From the IMG/VR virus record IMGVR_UViG_3300045988_007086, positions 1-47,211 of that record: a DNA stretch of 47,211 bases. One strand, 5' to 3'. Source of the stretch: a virus. Each line of letters opens with the position of its first letter. Position 1 is the first letter of the stretch. Positions 1,823 to 46,904 of the stretch are shown piece by piece. A program made the translations under genes and the position numbers. The notes beneath the pieces are model-generated. The model saw nothing but the letters and a program-made list of their open reading frames with translations, had not been told where the DNA came from and did no database searches.

Positions 1823-1839
1823 CCTTCACATATGATAGT

Positions 1840-2706: not shown

Positions 2707-2732
2707 CCCATTTAGTAAAATTTAATATTCAG

Positions 2733-2755
2733 GAGCCGCCCTATCCGGGCGGCTC
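2733..2755 (-). terminator. Hairpin/terminator at the end of the lysis operon
   Basis: GAGCCGCCC / GGGCGGCTC 9-bp stem overlapping the stop of 2741..2965. Followed on the minus strand by an A/U-rich tract, not a clean U-run. Confidence 0.5.
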
Positions 2756-2965: not shown

Positions 2966-2974
2966 ACGCCCTCC

Positions 2975-25733: not shown

Positions 25734-27488
25734 TCAGGCGTCGCTTCCGGCTTCCAGCACACGCCCGATGCTGTAGAGCTTAAACGGCCCTTTCCCTGTG
25801 ATCCGGAACCGCAGATGGTCACACCGCTGCGGGCGGATCGGCAGCAGGAACGTCCGCAGTCCGTGTCCGTCCATGTGTCCGGCGTGCCGGAACTCCCCGC
25901 AGGAGTCGTACTCGATCCAGAAGTCGCACGCGCTTCCGACGGGCAGCTGCATCCGCAGATTCAGCCGTGAGATATATTTCTTTCCGACGAGGCCGCATGT
26001 CATGATCCCGGTTGTCGCCGACCATGGGATCTCCGGCTCGACGTTTCCGCCGCCGGAGCCGTAGGCCGTGACGAGCATCCCGTCCGCGCTGAGCATATAA
26101 AGCTCATCGTCGAGCGCGGCGAACTGCGTCGCGTGCATGCCGTCCTCCCGGTGCCAAAGCCCCTTGAGCGTGTCATATACGAAAAGCTGCCAGGCATCGC
26201 TGCTGTCCTGCATCGAGATAAAATACTTTCCGCGCACGCCTCCGGCAGCCGCCTTGCGGTAAAGCTCCGTCCCGAAGGCGTCCGAGATCAGATAGGGGAG
26301 GGAGCCGTCATAGACGCACACGCCGTCCCGTGCCTTGTAATAGAGCTTATCGGCAATGACGGTCAGGCTCTGCTCACTTCCGCGCTGCACGCCTCGGGCC
26401 TTGATCTCCTTGACCTGATGCGCGCCCTGCGCGCTCGGATAAATGCGGTGAAAGCAGTCCTCTTTGAAGAAAATCGGGCTGTCTGCCAGCGTCGCGGCTC
26501 CTGTGAAGCGTCCGTCCGTACCGCAGCTTGCGCGCCATGAATCCGTCGAAATGCCCTGATAGCACTCCCAGTTCTTGAAATCACCCAGCTTGCAGCAGTA
26601 CAGTTCGTTGACGGTTTTCCCGTCCGACACGCCGTACCGGCAGCCCCAGAGTCGGTTCCCGCTCTCGGTGATGTAGTCCATCTTCGGCACACGCCGGGCG
26701 GCCTTGACCTCACCTGTGCTCTGGCTCGCGTCCGCGTCCACGATCCCGACGATCACAAGGTAGTTGTCGCCGACGTCCTGCAAAACGTGGGAGCCGTTGA
26801 GCTTTTCGACCTGATCCGTCCCGTCGAGTCCGCTGATCTGCACGCCGTCGTACTTTTTGAAGCCCGCTCCGATGCCGTTTGCCTCCATCTTGACGTATAC
26901 CGTCGGGATGCTCACCCACTGGCTCTGCACGGAGCTCCACTGCTTGAGTTCATGCTTGCCCGTATCCAGCCAGTAGGCGTCATTCGCGGCGTCCTCCGGC
27001 ATGGCCTGCTGCCGGTATGTGATCGTGATAACGGCCCCGTCCACGGTGCAGACCTTGATGGAAAGCGCCGTCTGCGTGCAGTCCACGAGGTTTTCATGGC
27101 CCATGTAGCCGTTGTCCGTGTAGTCCTCGGTGTTGAAATACCATCCGTCCGGGAAAACGCAGATGTACGCGCCCATGGACACCATCTGTTTTTGTCCCTC
27201 GGAGAGCAGCACCCCGCCCATGTACGGAGCCATGGGCAGTGCGTTGTACCACAGCACGCCGTCCTCGATCCATGCCAGCGCGTCCTTTGCCAGTAGCCCT
27301 TGGATGCCGGCAAAATCTCCGACCATTGCGCGGGCCGCGCGCTGAGACAGCAGGGGATAGTAGTCCGAGGTGAGATTCTGCATCTCGTAGAATTCGCCAT
27401 CGGCAATGCGCAGGTTGTGGTTGTAGCCCGCGAAGGCCTCCGTAACCAGCTGTTCCTGCGCAGGCGCGTTCAGTTCGGGGTAAAGCAT
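25734..27488 (-). CDS. Large hypothetical virion protein (584 aa), possibly a beta-propeller tail/nozzle protein
   Basis: Track ORF trimmed to ATG 27488 (TAATG overlap with the TerL stop, GGAGGAAAGA upstream). Beta-rich with repeated W/Y/G blades. The function is inferred. Confidence 0.7.
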   Translation of the reverse strand: MLYPELNAPAQEQLVTEAFAGYNHNLRIADGEFYEMQNLTSDYYPLLSQRAARAMVGDFAGIQGLLAKDALAWIEDGVLWYNALPMAPYMGGVLLSEGQKQMVSMGAYICVFPDGWYFNTEDYTDNGYMGHENLVDCTQTALSIKVCTVDGAVITITYRQQAMPEDAANDAYWLDTGKHELKQWSSVQSQWVSIPTVYVKMEANGIGAGFKKYDGVQISGLDGTDQVEKLNGSHVLQDVGDNYLVIVGIVDADASQSTGEVKAARRVPKMDYITESGNRLWGCRYGVSDGKTVNELYCCKLGDFKNWECYQGISTDSWRASCGTDGRFTGAATLADSPIFFKEDCFHRIYPSAQGAHQVKEIKARGVQRGSEQSLTVIADKLYYKARDGVCVYDGSLPYLISDAFGTELYRKAAAGGVRGKYFISMQDSSDAWQLFVYDTLKGLWHREDGMHATQFAALDDELYMLSADGMLVTAYGSGGGNVEPEIPWSATTGIMTCGLVGKKYISRLNLRMQLPVGSACDFWIEYDSCGEFRHAGHMDGHGLRTFLLPIRPQRCDHLRFRITGKGPFKLYSIGRVLEAGSDA

Positions 27489-28846
27489 TATCTTTCCTCC
27501 ATCATGTTCAGCGGGTCGATCCACTGCGGCTTTTCCGGCACGGCCAGCATCGGCTTCACCGGCCTCGACATGCAGAAATACCGCCATTCGTCCGCGACGT
27601 GATCCTCAAGGCTCGTGTCGAGGTCCTCCGGCTTGTGCTCATCGTACATGAGCAGCGGGATCGTCCGGAGAAACGCCTTGCAGGTGTTGAAAACGTACAT
27701 GCGCGGGTACCCGTTCTCATCGAATTGCAGCCGGTAGTGGCATTGCATCCAGCCCGGAATGCGTTTGTTGTCGCCCGGCGTGAAGTAAACGCGGTATCTG
27801 GCCGCTGTCTGCGCCACGCTTTCTCCGCGCGAAGCGTCCCAGATCGAAGGGTCGGCCACGCCGGTGATCTGCTTCCCGGCCAGCCATGGATGCTCTCGCT
27901 CCATCTTCGCGATCTCTTGAAACTGCACATCCGGCGACCACTTGACGCCGGTGTTCGGCTCGCGCGTGCATCCGTAAAGCTCCAGAATGCGGTAGATCAC
28001 GCCGTCGTAATCGACGGCCCACCACGCGCAGGAGAACGGCTTTCCGTATCCGAAGTCGTAGCTCCGGCAGATCGTCCATCCCGGATCGGGCGTAAACGGC
28101 TCGATCACATGGGTGTTCTGCCGTGTCCGGTAGCCCTCCGGGTTGTTGATAAAGTCCTCAAAGAACTGGCCCTCGTAAATATCCCACCGGCCCTCCAGCC
28201 ATGCCTGCCGGAGCTTTTCCGGCAGCTTTTGCAGCGTCTGGACGTACTCCGGCTGCGTCTCCATGAGCGCTTTATTGTCGGTCACAAGCGCCTGGATGAA
28301 CGTGTAGTTCTCCGGCTTTTCGCCTTCCTCAAAAATGCGATCAATGAACAGCCGCTTGAAATATCCGTGGCTCTGACCGCCCGGATTGAGCGTGTAGTAG
28401 GTGCGCTTCGGAAATCCGTTTGTACCGCGCACCGTTGTGTCGATGGCGTCCAGCCACTCCTTTTTGAGCTGCGCGGCCTCGTCGATGAAGACCACATCGT
28501 ACTCCGCGCCCTGATACTGGAGCATATCGTTATCATTCGCGCAGTAGCCGAACTTGATCGTCGATCTGTTGAAGAAGTGCAGCGTGCGCTCCGACTTGTT
28601 GTACCGTGCAATCCCGGCCAGTTCCTGCACCAGTACGTTGATGTGGTTGTTGAGCAGCTCCGGATATGTACGGCGCACGATGAGGATCTTGATTTCCGGC
28701 CACTTGGAGGCCAGCAGCTTTGCCTTCGCGCGCACGGCCCAGCTCTTTCCGCCGCCGCGCGCACCTCCGTAAGCCACGTGTCTGTGGCGGTCCAGCAGGA
28801 ATTTTCGCTGCTTTTCGTTGGGTTCGCCAATCACGATCTCTCTCAT
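27488..28846 (-). CDS. terL: Terminase large subunit (452 aa)
   Basis: Walker A YGGARGGGKSW and Walker B-like VVFIDEA, with the nuclease half downstream. ATGA overlap with TerS. Confidence 0.92.
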   Translation of the reverse strand: MREIVIGEPNEKQRKFLLDRHRHVAYGGARGGGKSWAVRAKAKLLASKWPEIKILIVRRTYPELLNNHINVLVQELAGIARYNKSERTLHFFNRSTIKFGYCANDNDMLQYQGAEYDVVFIDEAAQLKKEWLDAIDTTVRGTNGFPKRTYYTLNPGGQSHGYFKRLFIDRIFEEGEKPENYTFIQALVTDNKALMETQPEYVQTLQKLPEKLRQAWLEGRWDIYEGQFFEDFINNPEGYRTRQNTHVIEPFTPDPGWTICRSYDFGYGKPFSCAWWAVDYDGVIYRILELYGCTREPNTGVKWSPDVQFQEIAKMEREHPWLAGKQITGVADPSIWDASRGESVAQTAARYRVYFTPGDNKRIPGWMQCHYRLQFDENGYPRMYVFNTCKAFLRTIPLLMYDEHKPEDLDTSLEDHVADEWRYFCMSRPVKPMLAVPEKPQWIDPLNMMEER

Positions 28847-29409
28847 CCGGCGTAGTCCTCCGCGTCCTCGCTCATGGCCACGCGCACGCCCTCATGCTTT
28901 GCGCTGTCGGCCTCATTCCAGCCGAAACGCCGTTCCAGATGGAACTTTGCGCCGTTCGCTGCGGAGCTGTCGAGCCGCTGGATGTTGTAGATCTCGATTC
29001 GCGCCCCTGCGCGCGCGCAGGTCTTTGCGAACTCCTCCGATGCGCGCATCGCATCCCATTGCTTTTCGTCCAGCCCCAGCGCGCCCAGCAGCTCCGGCAT
29101 GCACGGAGGCCGTATCCATACCTCGCGCATGAGCGGCTTTTTCCCGCGCATCACCGGCACGACCGCCGTCTGCGTGTGTCCGTATTTGTCGAGCGCGGGG
29201 CATTGCATCACGATCCGTTCTCCGTTTTTGATAAATTCCCGATCCTCCAGCACCGGCTCCGTCCTCGTCACCGGCTCCCGGTAGCAGATCGATGCGAAAT
29301 ACCGATCGATTGCGGAGCGAAGCTCCCGCGCGCTTTTGTATACCTTTTCGTTCAGGCTCTTCGCCCCCTTTCGTTTTTCGGAAGCTCTGCCAGGCGCGGA
29401 GGTCCCCAA
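28843..29409 (-). CDS. terS: Terminase small subunit (start uncertain; TTG 29409 proposed)
   Basis: GRASEKRKG...ELRSAIDRYF...MPELLGALGLDEKQWDAMR...FHLERRFGWNE is a typical gp3-type TerS pattern. The track start at 29556 lies upstream of a terminator, so it is rejected. Confidence 0.6.
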   Translation of the reverse strand: MGTSAPGRASEKRKGAKSLNEKVYKSARELRSAIDRYFASICYREPVTRTEPVLEDREFIKNGERIVMQCPALDKYGHTQTAVVPVMRGKKPLMREVWIRPPCMPELLGALGLDEKQWDAMRASEEFAKTCARAGARIEIYNIQRLDSSAANGAKFHLERRFGWNEADSAKHEGVRVAMSEDAEDYAG

Positions 29410-29486
29410 CTCCGCGCCCAGTAGGAAGGAAAGAACATGGCTCGTACTGTCTCGGGCCTTCGCCCGGCACAGCCTCCGAAATATGC

Positions 29487-29522
29487 AAAAAAGCCGGACC
29501 TCCGCTTTCGCGGAGATCCGGC
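29487..29522 (-). terminator. Rho-independent terminator separating the early and packaging operons
   Basis: Minus strand reads GCCGGATCTCCGC-GAAA-GCGGAGGTCCGGC followed by TTTTTT. Confidence 0.8.
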
Positions 29523-29587
29523 TTTCGCTTGCCCATATTGCCCTTCGGATGCACAAGCAGCCGACGACCTCCGCAGCAGCGGACAGA

Positions 29588-30622: not shown

Positions 30623-31300
30623 TTATGCAAACAGTGATAGCTGCGCCGTATGCGCGGCGAAACGCTCCTCTTGTGCTGCAAAATAATCCTTGTCGATCTC
30701 GCACCCCACAAAATCCAGCCCTGCGTCATATGCAGCGATCCGGCTGCTTCCGCTGCCAAGGTGCGTATCAAGAATCTTGTCGCCCGGCTTTGCGTACCTA
30801 GCAAAGATCCAATCATAGAGCGCGATTGGCTTTTGCGTTGGATGTATCCTTCGCTCATTCTTGCTCTTGTTGCCTTGCATTACGTCGCCCTCCGCGATGC
30901 TCTTTCCTTGCATCATGCCATTCCACATATAGCGGATCAGCCTTGTGCTATCATGGCAATTTGTCGCCGCCAGCTCGCAATCGCTGAAGCTGCTCCCTTG
31001 GTTGCATTTGTCCCAAACGATCCTCCCCGGCGGGAAAGCATACCCGTAGTAATTGCATCCCCACACTATAAATCTCCGTGCAACGCGCCGAAGCTCTTCG
31101 AAATATTCTGTTCCCGGCACCTTCCATTCCGGGGATATCGGATAATCCCTGTGTACGCCGATTTTGCTCACCTTGCATCCGTAGTATCCGCGCCGTTCAG
31201 GCCCTGAAAAATACGGAGGATCTACCACAGCGAGATCAAATGCCTTATCCGGCAGCGCCCGCATATACTCCATGCAATCCATGTTATACGCAATGTTCAT
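30623..31300 (-). CDS. DNA methyltransferase, N6-adenine/N4-cytosine (beta class), 225 aa
   Basis: DPPY motif (VVDPPYF), then HPTQKP and the AdoMet motif ILDTHLGSGSS. Confidence 0.9.
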   Translation of the reverse strand: MNIAYNMDCMEYMRALPDKAFDLAVVDPPYFSGPERRGYYGCKVSKIGVHRDYPISPEWKVPGTEYFEELRRVARRFIVWGCNYYGYAFPPGRIVWDKCNQGSSFSDCELAATNCHDSTRLIRYMWNGMMQGKSIAEGDVMQGNKSKNERRIHPTQKPIALYDWIFARYAKPGDKILDTHLGSGSSRIAAYDAGLDFVGCEIDKDYFAAQEERFAAHTAQLSLFA

Positions 31301-32384: not shown

Positions 32385-32843
32385 CTACACCTCCTGTATG
32401 TCGACCCCGTATTGGGATCGCATCATTTTTTTGTTGCGCAGGTACTCCTTGGTGCGCGTGGGCTTGGACTTTACATCCTCCACCACCAGCTTCCCGCCGA
32501 AGCGGTAAGAAAAGTCCGCCGTGTATCGGATCGCGCGGATGCGCTGGCCGTTCTCTGTGAGATAGCTCTCCTGCAGCGTAAACTGCGGCTGCAATCGCAG
32601 ATCTGTAATGATCTCCGCGCGGAGCATCACCATCAGCTCGTCGTACCGCCGCGCCTCTTTCTGGCTGTCGAAGCGCACCGCGCCGCGCTCTGCCTTCTGG
32701 CTTCCGTATTTCGTTTTCCCTTGGCTCCCCTTCGCAAGGGGAGCTGGCGCCGCAGCGCCTGAGAGGTCGCGCGCCTGCTTCGCGTAAAGCTCCCGCATCC
32801 TCGGCGGCATGTCCGCCATCGTTTCAAATCTCAGCCCGCTCAT
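32385..32843 (-). CDS. DUF1064-family protein (PD-(D/E)XK-like), start uncertain
   Basis: KYGSQKAERGAVRFDSQKEARRYDEL...IRYTADFSY...VEDVKSKPTRTKEY matches the DUF1064 pattern. Confidence 0.7.
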   Translation of the reverse strand: MSGLRFETMADMPPRMRELYAKQARDLSGAAAPAPLAKGSQGKTKYGSQKAERGAVRFDSQKEARRYDELMVMLRAEIITDLRLQPQFTLQESYLTENGQRIRAIRYTADFSYRFGGKLVVEDVKSKPTRTKEYLRNKKMMRSQYGVDIQEV

Positions 32844-33039
32844 TGCTCGGCCTTTCTTGCTTCCATAGTCCACTCGCAGAAGCCGTAGGCAGTGGCGGCC
32901 ATGGATATGTGTACGGCTTGCACTCCGGGATATCGATCCATTCCCATTGGTTGTCGCGGTAAATCAGAAATATTTCCGCCTCCGGCTGGACGGCATACAC
33001 CGTGAACACGCCACCAGATAAAAGCTCAACCTGAAACAT
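32824..33039 (-). CDS. Small hypothetical protein (71 aa)
   Basis: Trimmed to ATG 33039 after AGGGGGG. Confidence 0.55.
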   Translation of the reverse strand: MFQVELLSGGVFTVYAVQPEAEIFLIYRDNQWEWIDIPECKPYTYPWPPLPTASASGLWKQERPSNERAEI

Positions 33040-34654: not shown

Positions 34655-35011
34655 CTATTCAATCCAAAACGTCGCAACCGGAACAAGCTCTTCATACCAT
34701 TGCTGGAAATCATTCCAATCGTTAAGAATGTTCCGGAAGAATTGTGCTGTCCCTTTTACCGTTCCCCATCCGTTCGATGCTTCGTATTCTTCGAATTTGT
34801 CGGGGTTCTGCTCCAAATTTCTCAAGCCAACCTCGATTTTCGGAATTACGTCCACGCAAAGCCCGTTGTTCTGGCAGTTCTTCCATTCCAGCCCCGTCGA
34901 CTTCTCTATAATTTTCCGGACGTTCCACGTTATATTTGCGTCGCACGTACCAACTGGGACGTAGGCATCAACCCCTTCGACTTTGACTTTGAACGAAATA
35001 TTGTAGCTCAT
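34655..35011 (-). CDS. Hypothetical protein (118 aa)
   Basis: GGAGGAAGGAGG upstream of ATG 35011. Confidence 0.65.
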   Translation of the reverse strand: MSYNISFKVKVEGVDAYVPVGTCDANITWNVRKIIEKSTGLEWKNCQNNGLCVDVIPKIEVGLRNLEQNPDKFEEYEASNGWGTVKGTAQFFRNILNDWNDFQQWYEELVPVATFWIE

Positions 35012-35391
35012 GCCTTACCTCCTTCCTCCGGCGCGTCCGGCAATCCGCGCCATTCCCAGTGGCTGGAATTGCCGCATCCGGCGCATGGACAATTTTTCGT
35101 CACACAGTTCATGCATTCGATAACAGTCGCATTATCAAATTCGCAGTAGTCGAAATGCTTACAATCCAGACACGAGCGACGCGCTTTTATCTGCTCAAGC
35201 AGCGCGTCCCTCTCGGCTTCTGCCTCTGCCTGCTTCTCCCGCAGCGCCGCGTTCTCGGCGGTCAGGCGCTCGATCAGGTCAGCGCTCACCTTCGGGCATC
35301 CGTCGCATCCAGCGACCGCCGTAAACGGGCAGTCCTCTGCTTCTCCGCTTGCGCAATCCCGCAGCGCCTGCACGATTTCTTTATTCGTCAC
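35008..35391 (-). CDS. Cys-rich hypothetical protein (127 aa, GTG start)
   Basis: Track ORF trimmed to GTG 35391, preceded by GGAGGGAAAAAC. The remaining upstream part overlaps the radical-SAM gene. Confidence 0.55.
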   Translation of the reverse strand: MTNKEIVQALRDCASGEAEDCPFTAVAGCDGCPKVSADLIERLTAENAALREKQAEAEAERDALLEQIKARRSCLDCKHFDYCEFDNATVIECMNCVTKNCPCAGCGNSSHWEWRGLPDAPEEGGKA

Positions 35392-36244
35392 GTTTTTCCC
35401 TCCAATATTCGTTGAACTTTTTCCCCGTAATGATCGGTCTGCACCACTCGCGCTGGAAGCGCCGCCAATCCGGATCATATTTTCCATCTTCTCCGCGAAA
35501 CAGCATTGCATACGGGACAAATCCTGCCTGCATAGTCTGTACGAGACGCTTTTCGGCGTCCTCAAAACTGTCACCGTCATAGCCGCACAGCACATAGCAG
35601 CACATTGTGTGGCTCGACGGCCTGAATCCTGCCGCGCGGAATTTTCGTCCCATTTCGATCAGCGGTTCCAGATCGTCTTTCGTATCGTAGGCCGTGTAAA
35701 TGCGGGCCGGTTTCACTTCGCGCAGCAAATCCGCCTGCCACTGCTGCAAAAGTGCTGGCTCCAAGCCTCCCGTAAATATCGCCGGATGTGCTTGCCGCTT
35801 AAGCATCTCGCAAACTGCCAGGAAGTGCCGTTCGGACGTGCCTAAAATGTTATCATCGAGGATGTTCCAACCATCCACGATTGGAAGTTCCTTGATTTGC
35901 CCATGCGCGCAGCGTGGTACAGAGCAAAACCAGCATTCTTTCGTGCAACCGCGAGACGTGAATATGTATCCGTCGCGCAGATACATACCCGGTGTAAAAT
36001 TTCCCATGCGATCATCAAAAGCAGGGCCGCCCACCTCGACAGGCACGCCCAACACCTGCCACGCATAATACAGTTCTTCCGCCGTCTCTATATCCCAAGT
36101 GAATGTTACGGATATGTGGACTTGTGTCACATTTGCCTTGATGCAATCTGCGATGTTTTCGATGGTCGGCGCACCGAAAAATGCCAGTGGATCGATGGGA
36201 GAAGCTTTTGTCTTGCGCGGAAACACTCTTGCAATCGAATTCAT
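35381..36244 (-). CDS. Radical SAM domain protein (about 287 aa)
   Basis: CxxxCxxC cluster motif SRGCTKECWFC (35924..35947), followed by the NILDDN and FTGGLEP segments typical of the radical-SAM half-barrel. The start (ATG 36244) is uncertain. Confidence 0.7.
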   Translation of the reverse strand: MNSIARVFPRKTKASPIDPLAFFGAPTIENIADCIKANVTQVHISVTFTWDIETAEELYYAWQVLGVPVEVGGPAFDDRMGNFTPGMYLRDGYIFTSRGCTKECWFCSVPRCAHGQIKELPIVDGWNILDDNILGTSERHFLAVCEMLKRQAHPAIFTGGLEPALLQQWQADLLREVKPARIYTAYDTKDDLEPLIEMGRKFRAAGFRPSSHTMCCYVLCGYDGDSFEDAEKRLVQTMQAGFVPYAMLFRGEDGKYDPDWRRFQREWCRPIITGKKFNEYWREKRDE

Positions 36245-36416
36245 TGCTGTAAGGCTTTTACCCCCTTCCATCAATCGGCACAAGTTGCCCGTGAATGATC
36301 TCCGTCGCCTCTTGCAAATATGGATTTTTCATGGTATACTCTCCTTGTACTTGATTTTCACAGAGAAGCGCAGGCTTCTCCGCCCTCGTCCGGCTGCAAC
36401 CGGTCGAGGGCATTTT

Positions 36417-36674
36417 TTATCCGATCAGGAACTCCGGCTTATAGTGGAGCTTCACCGCCCTGGCGTTTTGGTGGTATTCCGGCGCGCTCCACTTATAGCC
36501 CCAATATTTGGCCGCCGTAAAGATCGCGGCCAGCTCGTCTCCCGCGCGTACCGTAATGCTCTGATTGCGGTACGCGACGGCGTAATAATTTTTCCCGGTA
36601 TACCCGGCCTGCGCGATCACGCACTGCCTGCGCGGTGCCCGCTCTCCCGAGTAATCGGTGCTATTTTGCCGCAT
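36417..36674 (-). CDS. Hypothetical protein (85 aa)
   Basis: AAGGAAGGGG upstream of ATG 36674. Confidence 0.6.
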   Translation of the reverse strand: MRQNSTDYSGERAPRRQCVIAQAGYTGKNYYAVAYRNQSITVRAGDELAAIFTAAKYWGYKWSAPEYHQNARAVKLHYKPEFLIG

Positions 36675-36903: not shown

Positions 36904-37127
36904 TCGTCCTCGGCCTCCTCCCACAAATGCTGCATCCACGCCGCCAGCGTCAGCAGGCGCTTGCGCGTCTCCAGCAGCATTCCGACGGTCTCCCGGTCTA
37001 TGCGCGGCTGGCTGCTCAGTATCTCTGCGTCCTCCTGATTTTGCTCAGCGGCCCGTGTAGCCGCATCGATCAGGTCCTCCATCTGCTCCGGCGTCAGCTC
37101 CACCGGAATTTTCCCTTCATGCATCAT
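36900..37127 (-). CDS. Small hypothetical protein (75 aa)
   Basis: In the operon and overlapping its neighbours. Confidence 0.55.
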   Translation of the reverse strand: MMHEGKIPVELTPEQMEDLIDAATRAAEQNQEDAEILSSQPRIDRETVGMLLETRKRLLTLAAWMQHLWEEAEDE

Positions 37128-37857
37128 TCGTGCCCTGTTCCGCTATCTTCATTGCCTCGCGGATCACGTCTCCACCATATGCATCCTTGGTCAGCTCAAA
37201 GAATGCCTCGCGCGTCATATATGCGCTCAGGTCGATTCCGTGATCCTTCGCAAATGCCTTTCGCCCGGCCTCGCAACTCCCAGTCAGCCGATGATGCCAG
37301 TCGTACAGCGTCATCACCGGATACGCTGTATTCGGCTTGATCGCATTCAGAAATGCGGTGATCCGCTCCTCCTGCGGCATGTCCTCAAACGCCTTATCGC
37401 GCGCATCCGTCACAGCCTGACGCACCGTCTCCCCGTGCGCGAAACAGTCTTCAACTTTCGCGATGAAGCATGGCGTCAGCGTCAGATCGCCTTGCAGGAT
37501 AAAGCCCTTCGCAATGTCCCCGTGTACCGCCGTTATGATCGTCTGCACACCATCGATCATATGTACATCTTCTCCGTCGTACTTTTTAATGCCGTCGCCG
37601 TAGCCGTCGCCGGAGCCGGAGCCGGAGCCGTAGCCGGAGCCGTAGCCGTAGCCGGAGCCGTAGCCGGAGCCGGAGCCGGAGCCGTCGCCGTAGCCGGAGC
37701 CGTCGCCGGAGCCGTCGCCGGAGCCGTCGCCGGAGCCGGAGCCGGAGCCGGAGCCGTAGCCGGAGCCGTAGCCGTAGCCGGAGCCGTAGCCGGAGCCGGA
37801 GCCGGAGCCGTCGCCGGATCGCGCGTCCAGAAACTCTTTGATTTTTATCGTTTCCAT
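37117..37857 (-). CDS. Protein with an 80-aa G-S-Y-D low-complexity tract and a conserved-looking C-terminal domain (246 aa)
   Basis: Trimmed to ATG 37857. SGDGSGSGSGYGSGYGYGSGYGSGSG... is followed by a globular region (IDGVQTIITAVHGDIAKGF...). Confidence 0.7.
   Translation of the reverse strand: METIKIKEFLDARSGDGSGSGSGYGSGYGYGSGYGSGSGSGSGDGSGDGSGDGSGYGDGSGSGSGYGSGYGYGSGYGSGSGSGDGYGDGIKKYDGEDVHMIDGVQTIITAVHGDIAKGFILQGDLTLTPCFIAKVEDCFAHGETVRQAVTDARDKAFEDMPQEERITAFLNAIKPNTAYPVMTLYDWHHRLTGSCEAGRKAFAKDHGIDLSAYMTREAFFELTKDAYGGDVIREAMKIAEQGTNDA
37591..37817. repeat. Hexanucleotide-type coding repeat array (gagccg/tagccg/tcgccg units) with an internal duplication of about 66 bp
   Basis: Read directly from the sequence. 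It is in frame within 37117..37857. Confidence 0.9.
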
Positions 37858-38141
37858 ACTCTTACTCCATTGATGCTCCGCACCGCCTCGTCGGTGCAAG
37901 GGATGATCTCAATAATCCCGAGTACCGTCATTGCCGGTATCGTTACCGTAAACTTGCAGTTTCCCGGTGCCTTCACCCCCTCCGTTGCGAGCTGGGACAA
38001 GCTCGCAGCTCCATCCCAATACCACAGCCTTCGGCAATCAACCAGATCTGCCTCGGCACCTCTGCGCTCCGCGATCTTTGCGAGGAATACGCCCGCCCGA
38101 TCACACCGAATGATGTAATACTGCTCGTTTTTGTTTTTCAT
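37845..38141 (-). CDS. Hypothetical protein (98 aa)
   Basis: Trimmed to ATG 38141 after AAGGAGGAAACAATA. Confidence 0.65.
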   Translation of the reverse strand: MKNKNEQYYIIRCDRAGVFLAKIAERRGAEADLVDCRRLWYWDGAASLSQLATEGVKAPGNCKFTVTIPAMTVLGIIEIIPCTDEAVRSINGVRVWKR

Positions 38142-38203
38142 TATTGTTTCCTCCTTAAATTTCGTTTCCCGGCAGCTTCGCTCGAAGCGCCCTGATAATA
38201 TCC

Positions 38204-38470
38204 TCACAGCTCATACAGCACACTCCCCAGTACAGCGCTGATCGCCGCCGCTCCGCCGAAGGCCAGCGCCGCACCGGCCAGCTCCAAGGCCAGCAGCACC
38301 AGCGCCATGCCGGACAAAAACGCCCCTGCCAGCCAGCAGACGGAGAGCGCCGTCCGACGCACCCGTTCTCTCTTTTCCCGCAGGCCGTCCCTTTTGGCTC
38401 TGCGTGCTTCCCATTCGCGTTCCCGCGCTCTCTGGTGATTGATTCCCGTGATAAACTCCACATCGCTCAT
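38204..38470 (-). CDS. Small membrane protein (88 aa)
   Basis: Basic N-terminus, then WLAGAFLSGMALVLLALELAGAALAFGGAAAISAVLG. Confidence 0.6.
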   Translation of the reverse strand: MSDVEFITGINHQRAREREWEARRAKRDGLREKRERVRRTALSVCWLAGAFLSGMALVLLALELAGAALAFGGAAAISAVLGSVLYEL

Positions 38471-39889: not shown

Positions 39890-39950
39890 CTTCCCACCCC
39901 CTTCCAATCGACATTTCTTTTCTCGGTTACGTCCTCTGTAACTTGGTTTC

Positions 39951-39979
39951 ATGCTATCACATCTCTGATTCATTGTCAA
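39951..39979 (-). promoter_or_regulatory. Minus-strand promoter (candidate early lytic promoter)
   Basis: Minus strand reads TTGACA (39979..39974), 17 nt, TGA-TAGCAT (-10 at 39956..39951, extended TG). Confidence 0.55.
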
Positions 39980-40011
39980 GCACTTTTGTGAATCCCAGTT
40001 TCATTATTTTC

Positions 40012-40040
40012 TTGACAATGCATTTTTTCTGTGGTAACTT
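40012..40040 (+). promoter_or_regulatory. Promoter of the CI-like repressor gene
   Basis: TTGACA (40012..40017), 17 nt, TAACTT (40035..40040). Its -35 lies in CTTGACAATG, the exact inverted repeat of CATTGTCAAG at 39971..39980. Confidence 0.5.
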
Positions 40041-40062
40041 AGTTTCAGAAAGGAGGTCGCAC

Positions 40063-40437
40063 ATGAATAGCATCAACCAGCGGATCGATTTTCTGATAAA
40101 GGAACTAGGTATTACAAAAACGAAATTTTCCGAAGCGATCCATGTTTCTTCTCAATTCGTCTCCGCTATTTGTTCTGGCTCAAAGGTGCCGAGCGACCGC
40201 ACGATTGCAGACATCTGCCGCGAGTTCAACGTATCTCTTGCATGGCTGGAGACCGGGGAAGGGGAGATGTACGTCCAGCGCAGTGAGAACGAGCGCATGG
40301 CCCTGATGTTTGCCGACGTTCTGGCCGAGGCCGACGAATCCACCCGCAAGCGCTGCATCGCTGCGGCAATGGAGATGCCCCCTGAGTTCTGGGACAGCAT
40401 CTACGAGTACGCGAAAAAAATCACCGGAAGCGCATGA
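40063..40437 (+). CDS. XRE-family HTH repressor (CI-like), 124 aa
   Basis: Trimmed to ATG 40063 after AAGGAGG. HTH reads ITKTKFSEAIHVSSQFVSAICSGSKVPSDRTIADICREFNVSLAWL. Confidence 0.75.
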   Translation: MNSINQRIDFLIKELGITKTKFSEAIHVSSQFVSAICSGSKVPSDRTIADICREFNVSLAWLETGEGEMYVQRSENERMALMFADVLAEADESTRKRCIAAAMEMPPEFWDSIYEYAKKITGSA

Positions 40438-41693: not shown

Positions 41694-42734
41694 ATGAAAG
41701 TCCCCGAGCCTCGAAAGCTGAAATCCGGCACATGGTTCATCCAGCTCCGCCTTGGCGGCGAGAGCATCCCCGTCTCCGCCCTCACGCGCTCCGACTGCAT
41801 CAAGCAGGCGCAGCTCATCAAGGCCCAGCACCGCGCCGACGCCCGCGAAATCAAATACAAGACGGACAAGACCGTCCGTGATATTATACAGGATTATATT
41901 GACGCACTGCCCGCCGGTACGTCTCCATCGACAGTGCGAGGCTACTTAAGCGTTGCTTCGACACGATTCGCATCGGTCATGGATAAGACCCCGTCGAGCG
42001 TGCGCGACTGGCAGGCCGTGATCGATGCCGAAGCAAAGTCTGTCTCTCCGAAAACCGTAAAAAATGCGTGGGGCCTGCTTTCGTCTGCCCTGCGCAGCGC
42101 AGAGATCCCCGTCCCACGCATCCGCCTTCCGCAGCCTCACAAGGCGGAGAAACTTTGGCTGGAGCCGGAGCAACTTCCGGAATTCGTTCGACTCATTCAC
42201 GGCGACCGTTTTGAAATTCCTATGCTTTTGGCTCTGCACGGCCTCCGGCGCTCCGAGATTCTCGCCATGACCTACGACAAAATCGACCTTAAACGCGGCA
42301 CCATCACCGTCCACGGTGCCGCAGTCCTCGACCGTGACGGCGCAATGGTGCAAAAGGCCGAAAATAAGAATGCCAGCTCCCGCCGCGTTATCCCGATCAT
42401 GATTCCAGCCCTTGCGGCAGCCATCGAAGCCGTGCCTCCTGAACAGCGCACCGGCTTGATCTACGACGCCAATCCCACAACGTTGTATTGGCGCATAAAT
42501 ACCATCTGCAAAAACAACGGTCTCCCGGCGGTCGGCGTCCACGGCCTGCGCCACAGCTTCGCGTCGCTGGCATATCATCTTGGCTTGTCTGCGCAGGAAA
42601 CAATGGAGCTTGGCGGCTGGGCCGACAGCGATACCATGCTCAAGATTTATACGCACCTCGCGCAGGCCGACCGACTCAAGAGTCAGAATAAAATCGCCGC
42701 CTTTTTCGCAGAAAATGCTAACCAAAATGCTTAA
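41694..42734 (+). CDS. int: Tyrosine recombinase / phage integrase (346 aa)
   Basis: C-terminal catalytic region with LHGLRRSE, HGLRHSFASLA and IYTH (R..HxxR..Y). GGAGGTG upstream of ATG 41694. attP lies immediately downstream. Confidence 0.9.
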   Translation: MKVPEPRKLKSGTWFIQLRLGGESIPVSALTRSDCIKQAQLIKAQHRADAREIKYKTDKTVRDIIQDYIDALPAGTSPSTVRGYLSVASTRFASVMDKTPSSVRDWQAVIDAEAKSVSPKTVKNAWGLLSSALRSAEIPVPRIRLPQPHKAEKLWLEPEQLPEFVRLIHGDRFEIPMLLALHGLRRSEILAMTYDKIDLKRGTITVHGAAVLDRDGAMVQKAENKNASSRRVIPIMIPALAAAIEAVPPEQRTGLIYDANPTTLYWRINTICKNNGLPAVGVHGLRHSFASLAYHLGLSAQETMELGGWADSDTMLKIYTHLAQADRLKSQNKIAAFFAENANQNA

Positions 42735-42779: not shown

Positions 42780-42806
42780 TGGGTTCGATTCCCGTACGGG
42801 TCACCA
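42780..42806 (+). other. tRNA 3'-end fragment (attP core) 45 nt downstream of the integrase stop
   Basis: Same 27 nt as 1..27. Preceded by non-tRNA sequence (..ttcatttctt), so it is a fragment and not a gene. Confidence 0.8.
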
Positions 42807-42817
42807 AAAAGAGAAAT

Positions 42818-42851
42818 CCCGCAATTCATTGAGATTGCGGGTTTTTCTTTA
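42818..42851 (+). terminator. Second copy of the tRNA-type terminator
   Basis: Identical to 39..72. Confidence 0.7.
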
Positions 42852-42958
42852 CATACCAACGCTTTCCGGGTTTTTGTGCGTTGTAATATCTGACGCATTC
42901 TTGCATTGTCTGACGCATTCAGGATGCAATTTTCAACACAAAACGCTAACGAAAAATG

Positions 42959-43432
42959 CTAACGTTTTTGCTTCACAATGCACCTGTAATACGCGCAAAG
43001 CTTTTCCTCCGGGCCGGGGCCGTCCTTGTCCATCAAGAACGCCCGCGCCAGTTCCGCGTAGAACTCCGGCACGTTGACTCCGAATTTCCGCGCCACATCG
43101 TAGTAGTCCGAATACATCATGTTCATGGTCACACCCCACGCCCAGCGGGGGATGTCGTGCGGGATGCCGCTCGCATCCGCGACGGCGGAAGTCTGATCCA
43201 TCGTCCAGTGCGGGCCGGTCGTGCCGTCGGCATTCTGCATGCGCTCGGCCCACTGCATGGCCGTCTCTCGGTCAAACTCTGCCGCTTCCGGCTGGTCTTC
43301 GCGGCAGTCCAGCTTTTCCAGCCTGCGGATCGTCTTTGCGTACAGGCCGACTTCCTCCGCGCTGCCCAGCGTCACAGGTTTCTCCATGGCCTCGTGCAGC
43401 TTTGTGTAAAGCTTTTCGATATATTCTTTCAT
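42959..43432 (-). CDS. Second copy of 180..653
   Basis: Identical at +42779. Confidence 0.75.
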   Translation of the reverse strand: MKEYIEKLYTKLHEAMEKPVTLGSAEEVGLYAKTIRRLEKLDCREDQPEAAEFDRETAMQWAERMQNADGTTGPHWTMDQTSAVADASGIPHDIPRWAWGVTMNMMYSDYYDVARKFGVNVPEFYAELARAFLMDKDGPGPEEKLCAYYRCIVKQKR

Positions 43433-43436
43433 CTCG

Positions 43437-43775
43437 TCACGCCTCCTGCATGTATCGGTAGAGTTTGTCCACGTCGTTCTGATCAAAGCGCAGCTCGCCA
43501 ATGATCGGCACCGTGACCGGCAGCTTCTGGCCGTCAAAACGCGGCCTTGCCGCATTATAGAGCCGGTCAAGGTCGATGTTCCCGGCCTCGTCCATTACGC
43601 CCATCATCTTTACCGCCGGATTCTCGCGCAGCGCAAGGATCTTCTCGCGGCTGCCCTCCATGATGAGTGCCAGCATGATCCCGGCCCCGATGCCCTTGCC
43701 GCCCGGCAGGTGTGGAATGACCTCATTGTCCGCGTAGCGCATCGCGCCGCGCATGGCCTGATCTATCGTTACCAT
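43437..43775 (-). CDS. Second copy of 658..996
   Basis: Identical at +42779. Confidence 0.75.
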   Translation of the reverse strand: MVTIDQAMRGAMRYADNEVIPHLPGGKGIGAGIMLALIMEGSREKILALRENPAVKMMGVMDEAGNIDLDRLYNAARPRFDGQKLPVTVPIIGELRFDQNDVDKLYRYMQEA

Positions 43776-43824
43776 AAGGATACCTCCGTGTTAAGAGTGG
43801 GGCGGCGCTTGCCGCCCCTTTTGC

Positions 43825-44460
43825 TTAGCTGTTGCAGCACCCGCCGCACTTCTGGATCGGGTTGTAGAGCGTCTGCGCCGTGGTCGCGGTGCCCGTGGTG
43901 ACGTCGGCGACCTGCTTCGGGTAAAAGGTCGCGTTGACGTAGGTGACGATGGAGTTGTCACCGCAGCAGCGGCGCTCGGCCTCCATCTTGATCGCATCAA
44001 GCGCTTCCTTGCGGACGGACTCGACGTCCTGCTTTACCAGCGTGAAACTGTCCTCAGTGCGCTGGTTGTGGACGGCCTGCTTGCACAGCGCCTCACGGAC
44101 GTCCTTGAGCTGCCTGTCGATATAACCGTACACCTCCAGCATCTTGCCGTCGTTGTACGTGTTGGCCTTGAGCAGCGCGATCTCGCTGTCCTTCGCGGCC
44201 AGCTTCTGCTCCCGGTCGAGATCGTAGCGCGTGACCGGCATGTTCTCGCTGCACGTCGGTTCCTGCTGCCGTGCGGCGAGCATGGCGGCGACCGTCATGG
44301 CAGGCGTAACTGCTGCAACGACGTCAGCGGCTGCCGGCTTGTTGTTCTGTCCGATGCCGCCCAGCAGATTGCCGAGCCCGCCGTTTGCCAGACTCATCGC
44401 AGCGCCGCCGATGCCAAAGCCCAGCGCAGTCCCCGCGAGTCCCTTGCTTGCGTACTCCAT
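43825..44460 (-). CDS. Second copy of 1046..1681
   Basis: Identical at +42779. Confidence 0.7.
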   Translation of the reverse strand: MEYASKGLAGTALGFGIGGAAMSLANGGLGNLLGGIGQNNKPAAADVVAAVTPAMTVAAMLAARQQEPTCSENMPVTRYDLDREQKLAAKDSEIALLKANTYNDGKMLEVYGYIDRQLKDVREALCKQAVHNQRTEDSFTLVKQDVESVRKEALDAIKMEAERRCCGDNSIVTYVNATFYPKQVADVTTGTATTAQTLYNPIQKCGGCCNS

Positions 44461-44618
44461 AGTAGTACCTCCGATAAAATAGTAAGCTGGCCAGCTCCTA
44501 TGCTCATTATGAGGCATCCACGAAGAACAAAAAACCAACTCTTCGGCCACTTTTCGGGCACAAAATGTATAAAAAAACAGCCACTCCATACGGAGTGGCT
44601 GCCTTCACATATGATAGT

Positions 44619-45326
44619 TTAATCCTGTTTTTCAATTGGCATGATCATCTTCTTATGTTCCCGCTTCTTCCAGCACGACTTAAGCCCGTCAATGTGCTCG
44701 AACAAGTCCTTGGGAATGGTTGCCTCCATTGGATCAAGAATGAAGTCAATTCCCTCTCGTCTGGCCAGTTTTGCTGCTGGCACAAAGTCGCTGTCGCCTG
44801 CCAGTAAAATTATCTGATCTACTTGTTTTTTATACGCAAGTGACGCAATATCTAATCCGATGCGCATATCAACGCCTTTCTGGTTGAAGGAGATCGTAAA
44901 ATCTGATTCCGTTAAATCCTCAACGCTTCGTTCCTTTCTGCACAGTGCCTTTGTAGCATCCGCCGAAAGTGCAAAGTGCGCGCCGGCATCAGACAGCCGA
45001 CCCATTCGGAGTGCGACCTTGCGTTTCTTTTTCAATTCTTCAAAAAATGCATTTGCCCAACGATAAGTATCGGATTTTCCAAAGTCGATCCCGCACTTCA
45101 ACGCAGGATGATAGACCGTCTTTTTCAGCGGCGGGCAATCGTAATAGAAGATACGATACAGTTCACGCTCTTCTCTGTGGTCACTATCCTTCCCTTCATC
45201 GCGAATGTGTGCCATGCAGTAGGCATACAATTCGTTTGCGCGGTCAATCGGGCTTTTATCACCCCGAAGGTAAAACGCCCGCTTTCTGTAAAACGCACCA
45301 TCTACAAGAATTGCTGTCTTTTTCAT
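44619..45326 (-). CDS. Second copy of the NYN-domain gene
   Basis: Identical at +42779. Confidence 0.8.
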   Translation of the reverse strand: MKKTAILVDGAFYRKRAFYLRGDKSPIDRANELYAYCMAHIRDEGKDSDHREERELYRIFYYDCPPLKKTVYHPALKCGIDFGKSDTYRWANAFFEELKKKRKVALRMGRLSDAGAHFALSADATKALCRKERSVEDLTESDFTISFNQKGVDMRIGLDIASLAYKKQVDQIILLAGDSDFVPAAKLARREGIDFILDPMEATIPKDLFEHIDGLKSCWKKREHKKMIMPIEKQD

Positions 45327-45519
45327 ATGTCAGCTCCTAAAAAAATGATGAAGCCCCCGGTTGCAGCATTCCCCGTATGAATGGGGTGCTTAATACCGGG
45401 GGCCTGTTAATGGCACAACGGACGTAGTAAACAAACATTACTTTCGTTGTGCTTATATATTATGACAGCAAAAATTCATTGTCAACCCATTTAGTAAAAT
45501 TTAATATTCAGGAGCCGCC

Positions 45520-45744
45520 CTATCCGGGCGGCTCTGTTGCATGTTCCCGCAGTACATTCACGCACCGCGCTATGATCTTCTTGACGCCGTTTACGCTCAG
45601 GCCCTCGCGCTCGGCAATGCGCTCATGGCTCCAATCGTCAAGAATCTTCCGTTTCAGGATTTCCCGGTATCGCTCCGAAAGAATCCATTCGTCGATCAAA
45701 TGCTCCCAATCGCTGCGGCTCAGACTCGGCAGCCCCCGCAGCAT
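45520..45744 (-). CDS. Second copy of the sigma-70 region-4-like HTH gene
   Basis: Identical at +42779. Confidence 0.6.
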   Translation of the reverse strand: MLRGLPSLSRSDWEHLIDEWILSERYREILKRKILDDWSHERIAEREGLSVNGVKKIIARCVNVLREHATEPPG

Positions 45745-45753
45745 ACGCCCTCC

Positions 45754-46449
45754 TTACTTCGTGTCCAGCACGGCGATATTGCCCTTATTGCTGACCCTCA
45801 GGCCCAGCGCGGCGGCGATATCGCGCACCTTTACATAGTTCGTGCCGTTTTTCAGGATACGTTCGACGGCGACCTCCTTGCCGTCCACGATCATTTTGCT
45901 TTTTTCTACCACTTCATCTTCAAACCTTTCCAAGAATTTTTTCCACTGCTCGTTGCCAGTGGTGTGATAGTAGGTGTTCATGTCCGTGCCTACAAAAGGA
46001 CGCGGGCAGTACTTCCCGGACACATCATAGTGCCGGATAATGTGATCAGCCGGAATGTTGTGCTCCTCCATGAGCTTGCAGATGAGCCACTCGGCATTGT
46101 CCAGCACCTTTTTCTCGAAGAACCAGTCTGTGTCGTAGGCTCCCATGCGCTTCGGATTGACCTTCTTCGGTCTCAGCTCTACGCCGATGGAGTTCCAGTT
46201 CCGGCACTCCGGATGCAGCGTACCGTCTCCGCAGTGCCACGCCACATCCGTGTCCTTGACGCACCGGTAAATGATATCGCCCTCGTCTACGGCGTAGTGC
46301 GCGCTGGCTCTGGCCTGCGGGTTTTTGAACCACTCGGCCACGCTGGCCGCAGAGCCGAGTGCGCCGAAGTAGTGGACGACGATCCATTTCGGCGTGCATC
46401 CGCCCGCTCGATGGTTGATCGGCGTGAGTGCGTCCTTAATTACCGGCAT
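45754..46449 (-). CDS. Second copy of the Amidase_2 endolysin
   Basis: Identical at +42779. Confidence 0.9.
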   Translation of the reverse strand: MPVIKDALTPINHRAGGCTPKWIVVHYFGALGSAASVAEWFKNPQARASAHYAVDEGDIIYRCVKDTDVAWHCGDGTLHPECRNWNSIGVELRPKKVNPKRMGAYDTDWFFEKKVLDNAEWLICKLMEEHNIPADHIIRHYDVSGKYCPRPFVGTDMNTYYHTTGNEQWKKFLERFEDEVVEKSKMIVDGKEVAVERILKNGTNYVKVRDIAAALGLRVSNKGNIAVLDTK

Positions 46450-46651
46450 TGGTTGCGCCTCCATCCACTGCATCCTGCACCTTCTGGCTCTGCGTGCCGA
46501 AGTAGAACGCGATGATTACCGCGTAGATTGTCATGAAGTCCTGCGAGATCTTCTCGGCCACCGCCATGTAGGCGAACACGCCCGTCAGAACCAGCGTCAC
46601 AAGGCTCTTCACGCTCAGGAGATTCCCGAGCCGCTTGATGATCTTATCCAT
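46436..46651 (-). CDS. Second copy of the holin
   Basis: Identical at +42779. Confidence 0.75.
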   Translation of the reverse strand: MDKIIKRLGNLLSVKSLVTLVLTGVFAYMAVAEKISQDFMTIYAVIIAFYFGTQSQKVQDAVDGGATNAGN

Positions 46652-46904
46652 CGTATGTACCTCCATCGTCTTTATCATTTGGTTTTGCAAATACTCTCTT
46701 GAGCAGGAGCAAAATCAGCTCCCCGCCGAAGGCCGCGCCCGCGAATACCAGCACATCCGAAAGGTCGCACGTCCTATCCAGCAGGACGGCGGCGGTTTTC
46801 AGGATCATCGCCCATGTGGCCACTGCCGTGAGCATCCACAGGCAGTAGTATACAAGCTCGCGGGCCATACGGCCCTTTGTCCATCGTTTCTTGTCTCTGC
46901 GCAT
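46644..46904 (-). CDS. Second copy of the small lysis-cassette membrane protein
   Basis: Identical at +42779. Confidence 0.6.
   Translation of the reverse strand: MRRDKKRWTKGRMARELVYYCLWMLTAVATWAMILKTAAVLLDRTCDLSDVLVFAGAAFGGELILLLLKRVFAKPNDKDDGGTYDG

Follow-up and report, generated by a model that had tools for sequence, protein, structure and literature searches.

What does a small radical S-adenosylmethionine (SAM) protein do for the phage that encodes it, and is the short open reading frame (ORF) ahead of its gene a regulatory leader? These questions are raised by a 47,211-nucleotide stretch of viral DNA, IMG/VR record IMGVR_UViG_3300045988_007086, which we call the window. An earlier reading of its letters, the original prediction, had singled out a radical SAM protein of about 287 aa in this stretch, with a 24-codon ORF and two hairpins upstream. 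We suggest that the protein is a genuine and much reduced member of the radical SAM superfamily, that the 24-codon ORF is a scar of a deletion, and, more tentatively, that the enzyme modifies nucleic acid.

A compact radical SAM protein

The start of the gene had been thought poorly defined. It is now fixed by homology: 19 of 22 homologues start 0-5 residues ahead of the conserved IARVFPRKT, so the start is ATG 36244 and the product has 287 aa. Two other candidates, TTG 36283 and ATG 36271, were rejected, with neither homologue support nor a Shine-Dalgarno sequence. The predicted size of the protein and the place of its CX3CX2C motif (Table 1) are confirmed by the ORF, the alignment and the model.

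Loss of the Cys triad among homologues had been named beforehand as the finding that would speak against the assignment. The triad is invariant in all 23 close sequences (57-86% identity; alignment A1). Among 73 sequences at 32-60% identity to the reference, two of the three cysteines never vary, and conservation of the third is 90% or more. Of 232 family members with 240 aa or more, 227 have the contiguous motif. In the other five, an intein interrupts the motif once, the Cys spacing differs in two proteins, another is short at its N-terminus, and the last has lost the motif by deletion. In P0129 (550 aa), an intein with an HNH homing endonuclease sits between GCPNK and CWFC. Its +1 nucleophile is the second cluster Cys, and splicing would restore CX3CX2C. 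Inteins tend to occupy indispensable active-site motifs. In 10 unusually long family members, this intein with HNH was the only fused domain, and nothing informative was found beyond it.

The second hallmark of the superfamily is also in place. FTGGLEP is invariant in the close set (G172, G173 and E175 in the numbering of the 300-aa ORF), and a strand of the model at residues 169-174 carries the GGLE region. The AlphaFold2 (AF2) model, built on the family alignment (predicted local distance difference test, pLDDT, 85; predicted template modelling score, pTM, 0.81), has a four-stranded Rossmann-like N-domain of ~75-85 aa with two helices, then a linker and six beta-alpha units. The linker between the N-domain and the core carries a conserved GGPAFDDRMG.F.PG. 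Neither a conserved Cys upstream of the CX3CX2C motif nor a family-wide set of auxiliary-cluster cysteines is seen in alignments A1 or A2. Pfam gave no match to a TRAM domain, and the protein ends ~25 residues past core helix 6. No SPASM/twitch or peptide-recognition domain was found by Pfam or in the AF2 model, the protein ending with the radical SAM core. The ratio of non-synonymous to synonymous substitution rates (dN/dS) is 0.08-0.14 against close relatives in unsaturated comparisons, which points to strong purifying selection on the gene.

Because the Cys triad is conserved, GGxE is invariant and the AF2 model is confident, we assign the protein to the radical SAM type, as a compact, single-cluster form with a predicted truncated Rossmann-like N-domain and a (beta/alpha)6 core. 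It is very probably an active radical SAM enzyme.

Placement within the superfamily

At the family level the sole match was PHROG 9298 ('radical SAM domain protein'; E 7.1e-17), which covers residues 106-280 of the 300-aa ORF and leaves the N-domain outside. NCBIfam returned noise only (E of at least 0.01), mostly from B12/radical SAM families and RimO, and its models of QueE (to E 1), NrdG and PflA had no match. Searches of the PADLOC families, the viperin-like ones included, gave no match at E up to 1. In the window itself, a scan of 96 ORFs matched 27 Pfam families, and among the 25 of them listed there is no Que, Nrd, FolE, TGT or thymidylate-synthase/kinase-type family. The absence of QueC/D-, NrdG/NrdD- and viperin-type signatures that the original prediction had noted is borne out by these results. 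Nor did the protein fall into a well-known housekeeping activase family, which would have spoken against the original prediction.

Sequence searches of the PDB with the single protein and with two profiles gave best E values of 0.007-0.05, for 9ccb (an unnamed radical SAM protein), RimO and MiaB. The hidden Markov model matches to RimO, MiaB, TokK and CysS are located at the cluster motif, and their scored parts cover the cluster loop only. A sub-threshold match to RimO reaches the GYxGDT strand. The Foldseek comparison that had been proposed as a check did return the radical SAM fold, with AprD4 as the best PDB match (E 7.8e-4, TMq 0.48), followed by RimO (E 4e-3), and its matches were radical SAM enzymes and TIM barrels; they are weak, and diagnosed no subfamily. 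Against BFVD nothing close was found, the best match being an unnamed viral protein with a TM of ~0.5, which is non-diagnostic. The N-domain matched the S-x-L...GG part of cobalamin-binding domains weakly (E ~1), and Pfam gave no match to the B12-binding family PF02310.

These matches suggest that the enzyme lies near the COG0621/COG1032 region of the superfamily, in a much reduced form. On present sequence evidence it does not appear to be a QueE, an NrdG/PflA-type activase, a viperin, a methylthiotransferase or a demonstrable B12-dependent enzyme. It is an uncharacterised subfamily of a well-known superfamily and not a new kind of system. Our literature searches found no paper on this family.

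Spread of the family

A search of the 90%-identity collection gave 5873 proteins at E <=1e-3, and none of the 120 matches listed bears an informative name. Counted as 50%-identity clusters, there are 268 at E <=1e-30, 817 at <=1e-10 and 1663 at <=1e-3; of the 150 clusters listed, most consist of single-domain proteins with 270-300 aa. In IMG/VR, 163 stretches were confirmed for the subfamily of the window. For a second subfamily there were at least 567, found with a 12-sequence subset of the 73-sequence alignment. The gene is carried by 37 of the 185,579 species-representative genomes of GTDB, mostly metagenome-assembled genomes (MAGs), from Oscillospiraceae and other Clostridia, Synergistales, Desulfobacterales, Dehalococcoidia, Patescibacteria, Kiritimatiellaeota, Bacteroidales and Lentisphaeria. 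From the names of these taxa we take most of them to be anaerobes. A tblastn search of 50,697 deposited phage records found a relative in three distinct phages (four records), all of them distant, either unannotated or named 'radical SAM domain protein', and with uninformative neighbours. Of 50 cultured or deposited phage records that were hit-tested, 47 had no relative. The family appears to be large, to span many phyla of anaerobes and to be carried almost wholly by phages and prophages.

The isoelectric point (pI) of family proteins of 260-310 aa has a median of 6.3 in the whole retrieved set (P0001-P0268), to which the window's clade contributes most. Distant representatives are basic (median pI 8.95) and the window-clade proteins acidic (pI ~5.7). 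We rejected pI as a pointer to nucleic-acid binding, since it is contradictory between clades.

Given this distribution, the enzyme could instead serve host takeover or metabolism, by activating a glycyl-radical enzyme or by cofactor or metabolite chemistry that boosts the anaerobic metabolism of the host. Most of the family is found in phages and prophages of taxa known as anaerobes, and AprD4, to which the structural match was best, has a small-molecule substrate. However, the NrdG and PflA activase models are without match, the cluster motif lies at residue 100 behind an extra N-domain whereas activases have an N-terminal motif, and no metabolic genes recur in the neighbourhood. We consider a metabolic role very improbable.

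Neighbouring genes and the putative substrate

For a survey of gene context, genes were called in 198 loci and their products clustered all-against-all; dereplication at 85% radical SAM identity left 92 loci. No obligate partner gene was found. The same-strand genes immediately next to the radical SAM gene, 133 in all from up to 92 dereplicated loci, were tallied by Pfam family. PAPS_reduct (3'-phosphoadenosine-5'-phosphosulfate, PAPS, reductase) ranks first with 8 of the 133, followed by C5 DNA methylase with 4, DUF5131 and YopX with 2 each, and the Dam and D12 methylases with 1 each. The survey of homologues, which had been proposed together with the original prediction, therefore yields recurrent PAPS-like and DNA methyltransferase neighbours and no consistent partner.

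In 56 of the 198 loci a PAPS-like gene is found no more than 5 kb away; after dereplication this holds for 11 of 92. The two genes are often adjacent, and this in both gene orders and over radical SAM identities of 47-88%. Such adjacent pairs with a PAPS_reduct (PP-loop) gene are found in L029, L041, L068, L071, L080, L098, L100, L106, L162, L184 and L196, several of them with a 4-nt overlap. This suggests that the link is real but optional. We know of no role assigned to the PAPS-reductase-like proteins of phages.

One explanation builds on this pairing. The two genes could form a cassette in which the PAPS-like PP-loop ATPase adenylates or thiolates a position in nucleic acid and the radical SAM enzyme finishes the modification; as the partner would have been deleted in the window, a PP-loop enzyme of the host would stand in, or a partial pathway would operate. 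In its favour are the rank of PAPS_reduct among the immediate neighbours, the overlapping pairs, the PAPS remnants that sister phages keep directly upstream of the radical SAM gene (described below), and the fact that the nearest sequence relatives, RimO and MiaB, insert sulfur. But the gene is near in only 11 of the 92 dereplicated loci, and the window has none even though its radical SAM gene is strongly purified by selection. In addition, the protein has no auxiliary-cluster cysteines of the kind that methylthiotransferases use for sulfur. We regard a cassette of this sort as unlikely.

Our favoured reading, which we hold tentatively and with somewhat less than even confidence, is that the radical SAM enzyme modifies nucleic acid, most likely phage DNA and possibly RNA, in the service of the phage during early infection. 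We favour a nucleic-acid substrate because the variable early neighbourhood of the gene holds methyltransferases and PAPS-like, DUF5131 and ASCH-like genes, because the nearest relatives are RNA- and protein-modifying methylthiotransferases, and because the QueE and thymidine-hypermodification isomerase pathways of phages serve DNA modification (PMC8989533, PMC5889632). An anti-restriction or nucleic-acid role is put forward as a hypothesis, for which the recurrent DNA-modification neighbours are the only support.

In this proposed mechanism, host flavodoxin or ferredoxin would reduce the [4Fe-4S] cluster on C100, C104 and C107. SAM bound at GGLE would then be cleaved to the 5'-deoxyadenosyl radical, and a hydrogen would be abstracted from the substrate, most likely nucleic acid in the form of phage DNA, or possibly RNA. 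The resulting modification would help the phage in early infection, for example by restriction evasion. In a minority of phages, the enzyme appears to act alongside the adjacent PAPS-reductase-like PP-loop ATPase. The window has no PAPS-like or DUF5131 gene, and the immediate neighbours of its radical SAM gene include no PAPS-like, methyltransferase, DUF5131 or YopX gene. As no PAPS-like, Que or Nrd partner is seen there, the enzyme must presumably work alone or with host factors in this phage, and it appears to need no phage-encoded partner in the genome of the window.

Several observations weigh against this reading. The match to the Pfam family Radical_SAM PF04055 scores 22.4 bits, which is under the gathering cut-off of 29.5 bits (a precomputed PF04055 match is present in about one-third of the 120 close homologues listed), and the structural matches are weak, with a TM of 0.48. 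The acidic pI of the window's clade (~5.7) does not suggest DNA binding. The neighbour associations are those of a minority, ~12% of dereplicated loci for the PAPS-like genes, and the neighbour-family counts are raw, not set against a background frequency; methyltransferases are common in phage early regions anyway. Finally, the translational coupling described in the next section is deduced solely from spacing.

Origin of the 24-codon ORF

The 24-codon ORF upstream of the gene does have the strong Shine-Dalgarno sequence that was predicted for it (Table 1), and the CAAGGA core of this sequence is invariant in 10 of 10 aligned related loci. Its stop, TAA 36260..36258, had been placed 11 nt before ATG 36244; the actual gap is 13 nt. 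The two hairpins, predicted at 36372..36410, are real and span a wider region (Table 1). Together with their 3' flank (64 nt) they fold with -34.9 kcal/mol (z = -5.2), and 0 of 200 shuffles were as stable. At the position of hairpin 2, three different sequences occur among relatives, and every one of them folds into a hairpin. A tandem two-hairpin element after the 85-aa gene is also found at the homologous sites in L005-L014 and L068. The hairpins were rejected as an intrinsic terminator; there is no U tract, and a terminator scan makes no call there.

Comparison with related loci points to the origin of the ORF. The exact or near-exact 24-aa peptide is found only in five near-identical relatives (L005-L007, L009 and L010). 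In the sister phage L008, whose radical SAM protein is 97% identical, the same hairpins, Shine-Dalgarno sequence and MKNPYLQEATEIIRG open an ORF of 40 codons. This is followed by a C5 DNA methyltransferase, a PAPS-reductase-like fragment, a 148-aa Cys-rich gene and the radical SAM gene, in this order. The end of the 148-aa gene (...LVPIDGRG-stop) and the 13-nt spacer after it are identical to the 3' part of the 24-codon ORF of the window. The ORF is a composite: codons 1-15 are a lineage-specific leader start, and codons 17-24 with the stop are the end of the 148-aa gene. Because its 3' part and the spacer match the end of that gene in L008, we suggest that the 24-codon ORF is an in-frame fusion left by a deletion of ~1.8 kb of cargo genes, a deletion scar and not a dedicated regulator.

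A second scar is found at the same junction. In L011-L016 and L019-L025, the N-terminus of a PAPS-like protein (MDLEQTAIERL(K/R)MASDMSLRL...) persists as a short ORF ~100 nt upstream of the radical SAM gene, which it directly precedes. The PAPS-reductase-like fragment in L008 has 102 aa (4275..4583 of that locus). The short ORF of L011-L016 and L019-L025 is a scar independent of the 24-codon one in the window.

The original prediction had proposed translational coupling or leader control, and these two possibilities fared differently. A dedicated regulatory leader, that is, an attenuator made of the 24-codon ORF and the hairpins and evolved for the radical SAM gene, would account for the strong Shine-Dalgarno sequence of the ORF, for a stop 13 nt before a start that has no Shine-Dalgarno sequence of its own, for hairpins that are conserved as structure, and for a short ORF with the same start that the related loci examined retain, with 20-40 codons. 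However, in L008, L011, L013-L015 and L068 it is a C5 DNA methyltransferase that follows these hairpins and this leader start; in L014, for example, the leader start opens a 20-codon ORF, the stop of which overlaps the Shine-Dalgarno sequence of the methyltransferase. The 3' third of the ORF is the tail of another gene, and the lack of a U tract and of a terminator call also speaks against an attenuator. Moreover, 74 of the first 84 loci have unrelated sequence ahead of the radical SAM gene, usually with a GGAGG of its own at 6-8 nt from the ATG and often with overlapping stop and start codons. The leader and hairpins are not conserved jointly with the radical SAM gene; they travel with the 85-aa gene, and most radical SAM loci are without them. 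The tandem hairpins thus seem to belong to the junction behind the 85-aa gene, whichever gene comes next. We consider a leader dedicated to the radical SAM gene quite improbable.

Coupling, by comparison, is still plausible for this deletion scar. The only Shine-Dalgarno-like run ahead of the gene in the window (GGAAGGGGG) ends 16 nt before ATG 36244, so that this ATG is without a Shine-Dalgarno sequence at workable spacing, and re-initiation after the stop of the 24-codon ORF is a reasonable inference. Ribosomes that finish the 24-codon ORF 13 nt upstream would then probably go on to translate the radical SAM gene. This ORF would fuse a strongly initiating leader start behind the hairpins to the tail of a former upstream gene. 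A frameshift that joins the ORF to the radical SAM gene was rejected, as the frames differ, homologues start with M..IARVFPRKT and the tail of the ORF comes from another gene.

The phage genome and the location of the gene

The window consists of a complete genome of 42,779 bp and an exact repeat of its first 4,432 bp (1..4432 and 42780..47211, 0 mismatches). The repeat points to a phage genome that is circular or circularly permuted, with its ends overlapping in the assembly. The source is a temperate tailed phage of the gut. An integrase, a CI-like repressor, the terminase genes and a P22/SU10-type portal are present (Table 1), and the window proteins include an Amidase_2 lysin domain by Pfam. 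Among bacterial genomes, human-gut MAGs of Oscillospiraceae and other Clostridia hold the nearest relatives of the radical SAM gene, and no close relative of the window at the DNA level was found among deposited phages.

Nearly all genes are on the minus strand. As predicted, the radical SAM gene lies among early genes, in a leftward operon with the CI-like repressor on one side and the terminase genes on the other. None of the ten genes around it has a known function. The GTG of the downstream 127-aa gene overlaps the radical SAM stop by 11 nt and has GGAGGG 6 nt upstream, and family searches with this gene and with the 85-aa gene gave no match for either.

Table 1. Position, strand and supporting detail of the features discussed, in window coordinates.
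Feature	Position	Strand	Basis or detail
Radical SAM gene	35381..36244	-	ORF; 287 aa, 33 kDa, pI 5.7
Truncated Rossmann-like N-domain, ~75 aa (IARVFPRKT..SP.D ... HISVTF ... VGGPAF)	36020..36244	-	AF2 model
CX3CX2C motif CTKECWFC (C100/C104/C107)	35924..35947	-	inferred [4Fe-4S] cluster ligands
GGLE (G159, G160, E162), 'GGE' SAM-binding motif at end of core strand beta-3	35759..35770	-	alignment and model
24-codon chimeric ORF MKNPYLQEATEIIHGQLVPIDGRG	36258..36332	-	tblastn; ORF maps of L008, L014, L026; upstream alignments
AAGGAG Shine-Dalgarno of 24-codon ORF	36341..36346	-	8 nt before its ATG
Hairpin 2	36362..36381	-	8-bp stem, no U tract after it
Hairpin 1	36382..36411	-	12-bp stem with one internal mismatch, from 5 nt past the stop of the 85-aa gene; conserved in 10 aligned loci
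85-aa gene, upstream	36417..36674	-	ends just before hairpin 1; conserved in L008, L014, L026
Cys-rich 127-aa gene, downstream	35008..35391	-	GTG start; homologous starts in L008, L014
N6_N4-type DNA methyltransferase	30623..31300		the only DNA methyltransferase of the window; 4 kb downstream of the radical SAM gene
gp3-like small terminase	28843..29556	-	
Large terminase	27488..28846	-	
P22/SU10-type portal	23833..25716	-	
CI-like repressor	39943..40437	+	
Integrase	41694..42734	+	
3042-aa ORF	9222..18350	-	
260-aa ORF	37117..37899	-	
DUF1064	32385..32873		window Pfam summary
DUF6948	37845..38207		window Pfam summary

The Cys-rich character of this overlapping downstream gene raises another explanation, in which the enzyme modifies a protein or peptide, for example the adjoining Cys-rich small proteins, in a maturase-like manner or like the enzymes of ribosomally synthesized and post-translationally modified peptides (RiPPs). 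The Cys-rich 148-aa gene ahead of the radical SAM gene in L008 fits as well. But such Cys-rich neighbours occur in no clade other than the window's (~4 of 92 dereplicated loci), no SPASM/twitch or peptide-recognition domain is present, and no conserved peptide gene accompanies the family. Peptide modification has, in our judgement, only a slim chance of being correct.

The location of the gene also bears on a role in prophage defence or superinfection exclusion, in which the enzyme would make a viperin-like toxic or chain-terminating nucleotide, or would drain SAM to act against SAM-dependent restriction or BREX. The phage is temperate, as its integrase and CI-like repressor indicate, and radical SAM enzymes consume SAM. 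However, a PADLOC match is absent, and the gene lies inside an early lytic operon and is translationally linked to its neighbours, rather than forming a separately transcribed moron near the lysogeny module. Motifs of the N-domain that are conserved outside the SAM site argue for a specific substrate. We hold a defence role to be highly improbable.

Other features of the window are recorded here for completeness. The 3042-aa ORF, whose only matches are to PHROGs without an assigned function (22978 and 28077), presumably encodes a giant protein of the virion or tail. The 260-aa ORF has a ~90-residue Gly/Ser/Tyr tract, (GSGYGY/GDGS)n, followed by a globular C-terminal part; a significant family match was not found for it. 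Further phage families by Pfam are a Y_phosphatase3-type tyrosine phosphatase, an NYN-domain (RNase-like) protein and DUF7841, in addition to DUF1064 and DUF6948.

Implications

Radical SAM enzymes do chemistry that is beyond ordinary methyltransferases and glycosyltransferases, and new DNA bases came to light through the few solved cases from phages, QueE and the thymidine-hypermodification isomerase. The family described here is a well-defined target, with thousands of proteins and hundreds of viral contigs, in mobile elements of anaerobes and under strong selection. The active-site intein marks it as important enough to host one, and it has no curated model and no solved structure. Its optional but recurrent pairing with a PAPS-reductase-like gene provides a second handle on function. 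A bolder and rather doubtful proposal is that this minimal enzyme of ~285 aa, in hundreds of phage lineages, adds to phage DNA, or to RNA of host or phage, a radical-derived modification that has not been described before, alone or, in some phages, with a PP-loop PAPS-reductase-like enzyme. If true, this would be a new class of chemistry by which phages modify nucleic acids and counter defence. The family is thus a good target in the search for new phage nucleic-acid chemistry.

The upstream region holds a more general lesson. Where deletions occur in mosaic early regions, short ORFs remain as in-frame scars, and these can keep downstream genes translated. Such scars are a caution against calling short upstream ORFs regulatory leaders.

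Comparison with known systems

RimO and MiaB (COG0621; PDB codes: 2qgq, 4jc0 and 7mjv) are among the best PDB sequence matches. They have in common with the phage protein the cluster-loop signature GC-x3-C-x-FC-x-VP-x3-G-x-R and an N-terminal flavodoxin-like domain ahead of the radical SAM core, and the sub-threshold RimO match also extends over the strand-5 'L/V-GYxGDT/E' motif. However, the phage N-domain is without the three-Cys auxiliary-cluster site (UPF0004), and the phage protein is without the C-terminal TRAM RNA-binding domain and has ~285 aa as compared with ~440 aa. The likeness is limited to E values of 0.01-0.05, with scored matches of only ~30 residues.

The class-B (cobalamin-dependent) enzymes and AprD4 (COG1032; PDB codes: 6fd2, 7kdx, 9n1b and 9ccb) are the other close group. 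AprD4, a B12-free relative of class-B radical SAM enzymes, is the best structural match, and the weak NCBIfam matches of the phage protein are mostly to B12/radical SAM families. Unlike class-B enzymes, the phage protein has an N-domain of ~75-85 aa and four strands with no Pfam B12-binding match, and it is half the size of any characterised class-B enzyme.

Members of PHROG 9298 are found in phages, for example vir215_00033 of a Methanomassiliicoccales virus, and UF08_54 of Marinitoga camini virus 1 is related. Like the gene in the window, they are early-region genes without annotated partners. They differ in being longer (343-360 aa), with 27-32% identity over 62% of the query, and the PHROG carries no functional information.

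The radical SAM and DUF483 module of the Thermus phages Cumys and phiMa, for which the authors suspect DNA modification of unknown kind (PMC11437467), is likewise an orphan phage radical SAM locus. That module is a conserved set of three genes with DUF483, whereas no such partner was seen here, and no Thermus phage record is among the tblastn matches.

For function, the analogy that we favour is with QueE, in the pathway to 7-deazaguanine DNA, and with the thymidine-hypermodification isomerase of phage M6. QueE has no sequence match to the phage protein, the four distant phage records found by tblastn are annotated as neither enzyme, and no QueC, QueD, FolE, DpdA, thymidylate synthase or kinase is among the Pfam matches listed for the window. 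What these systems and our favoured reading would have in common is a phage radical SAM enzyme that takes part in restriction-evading DNA modification (PMC8989533).

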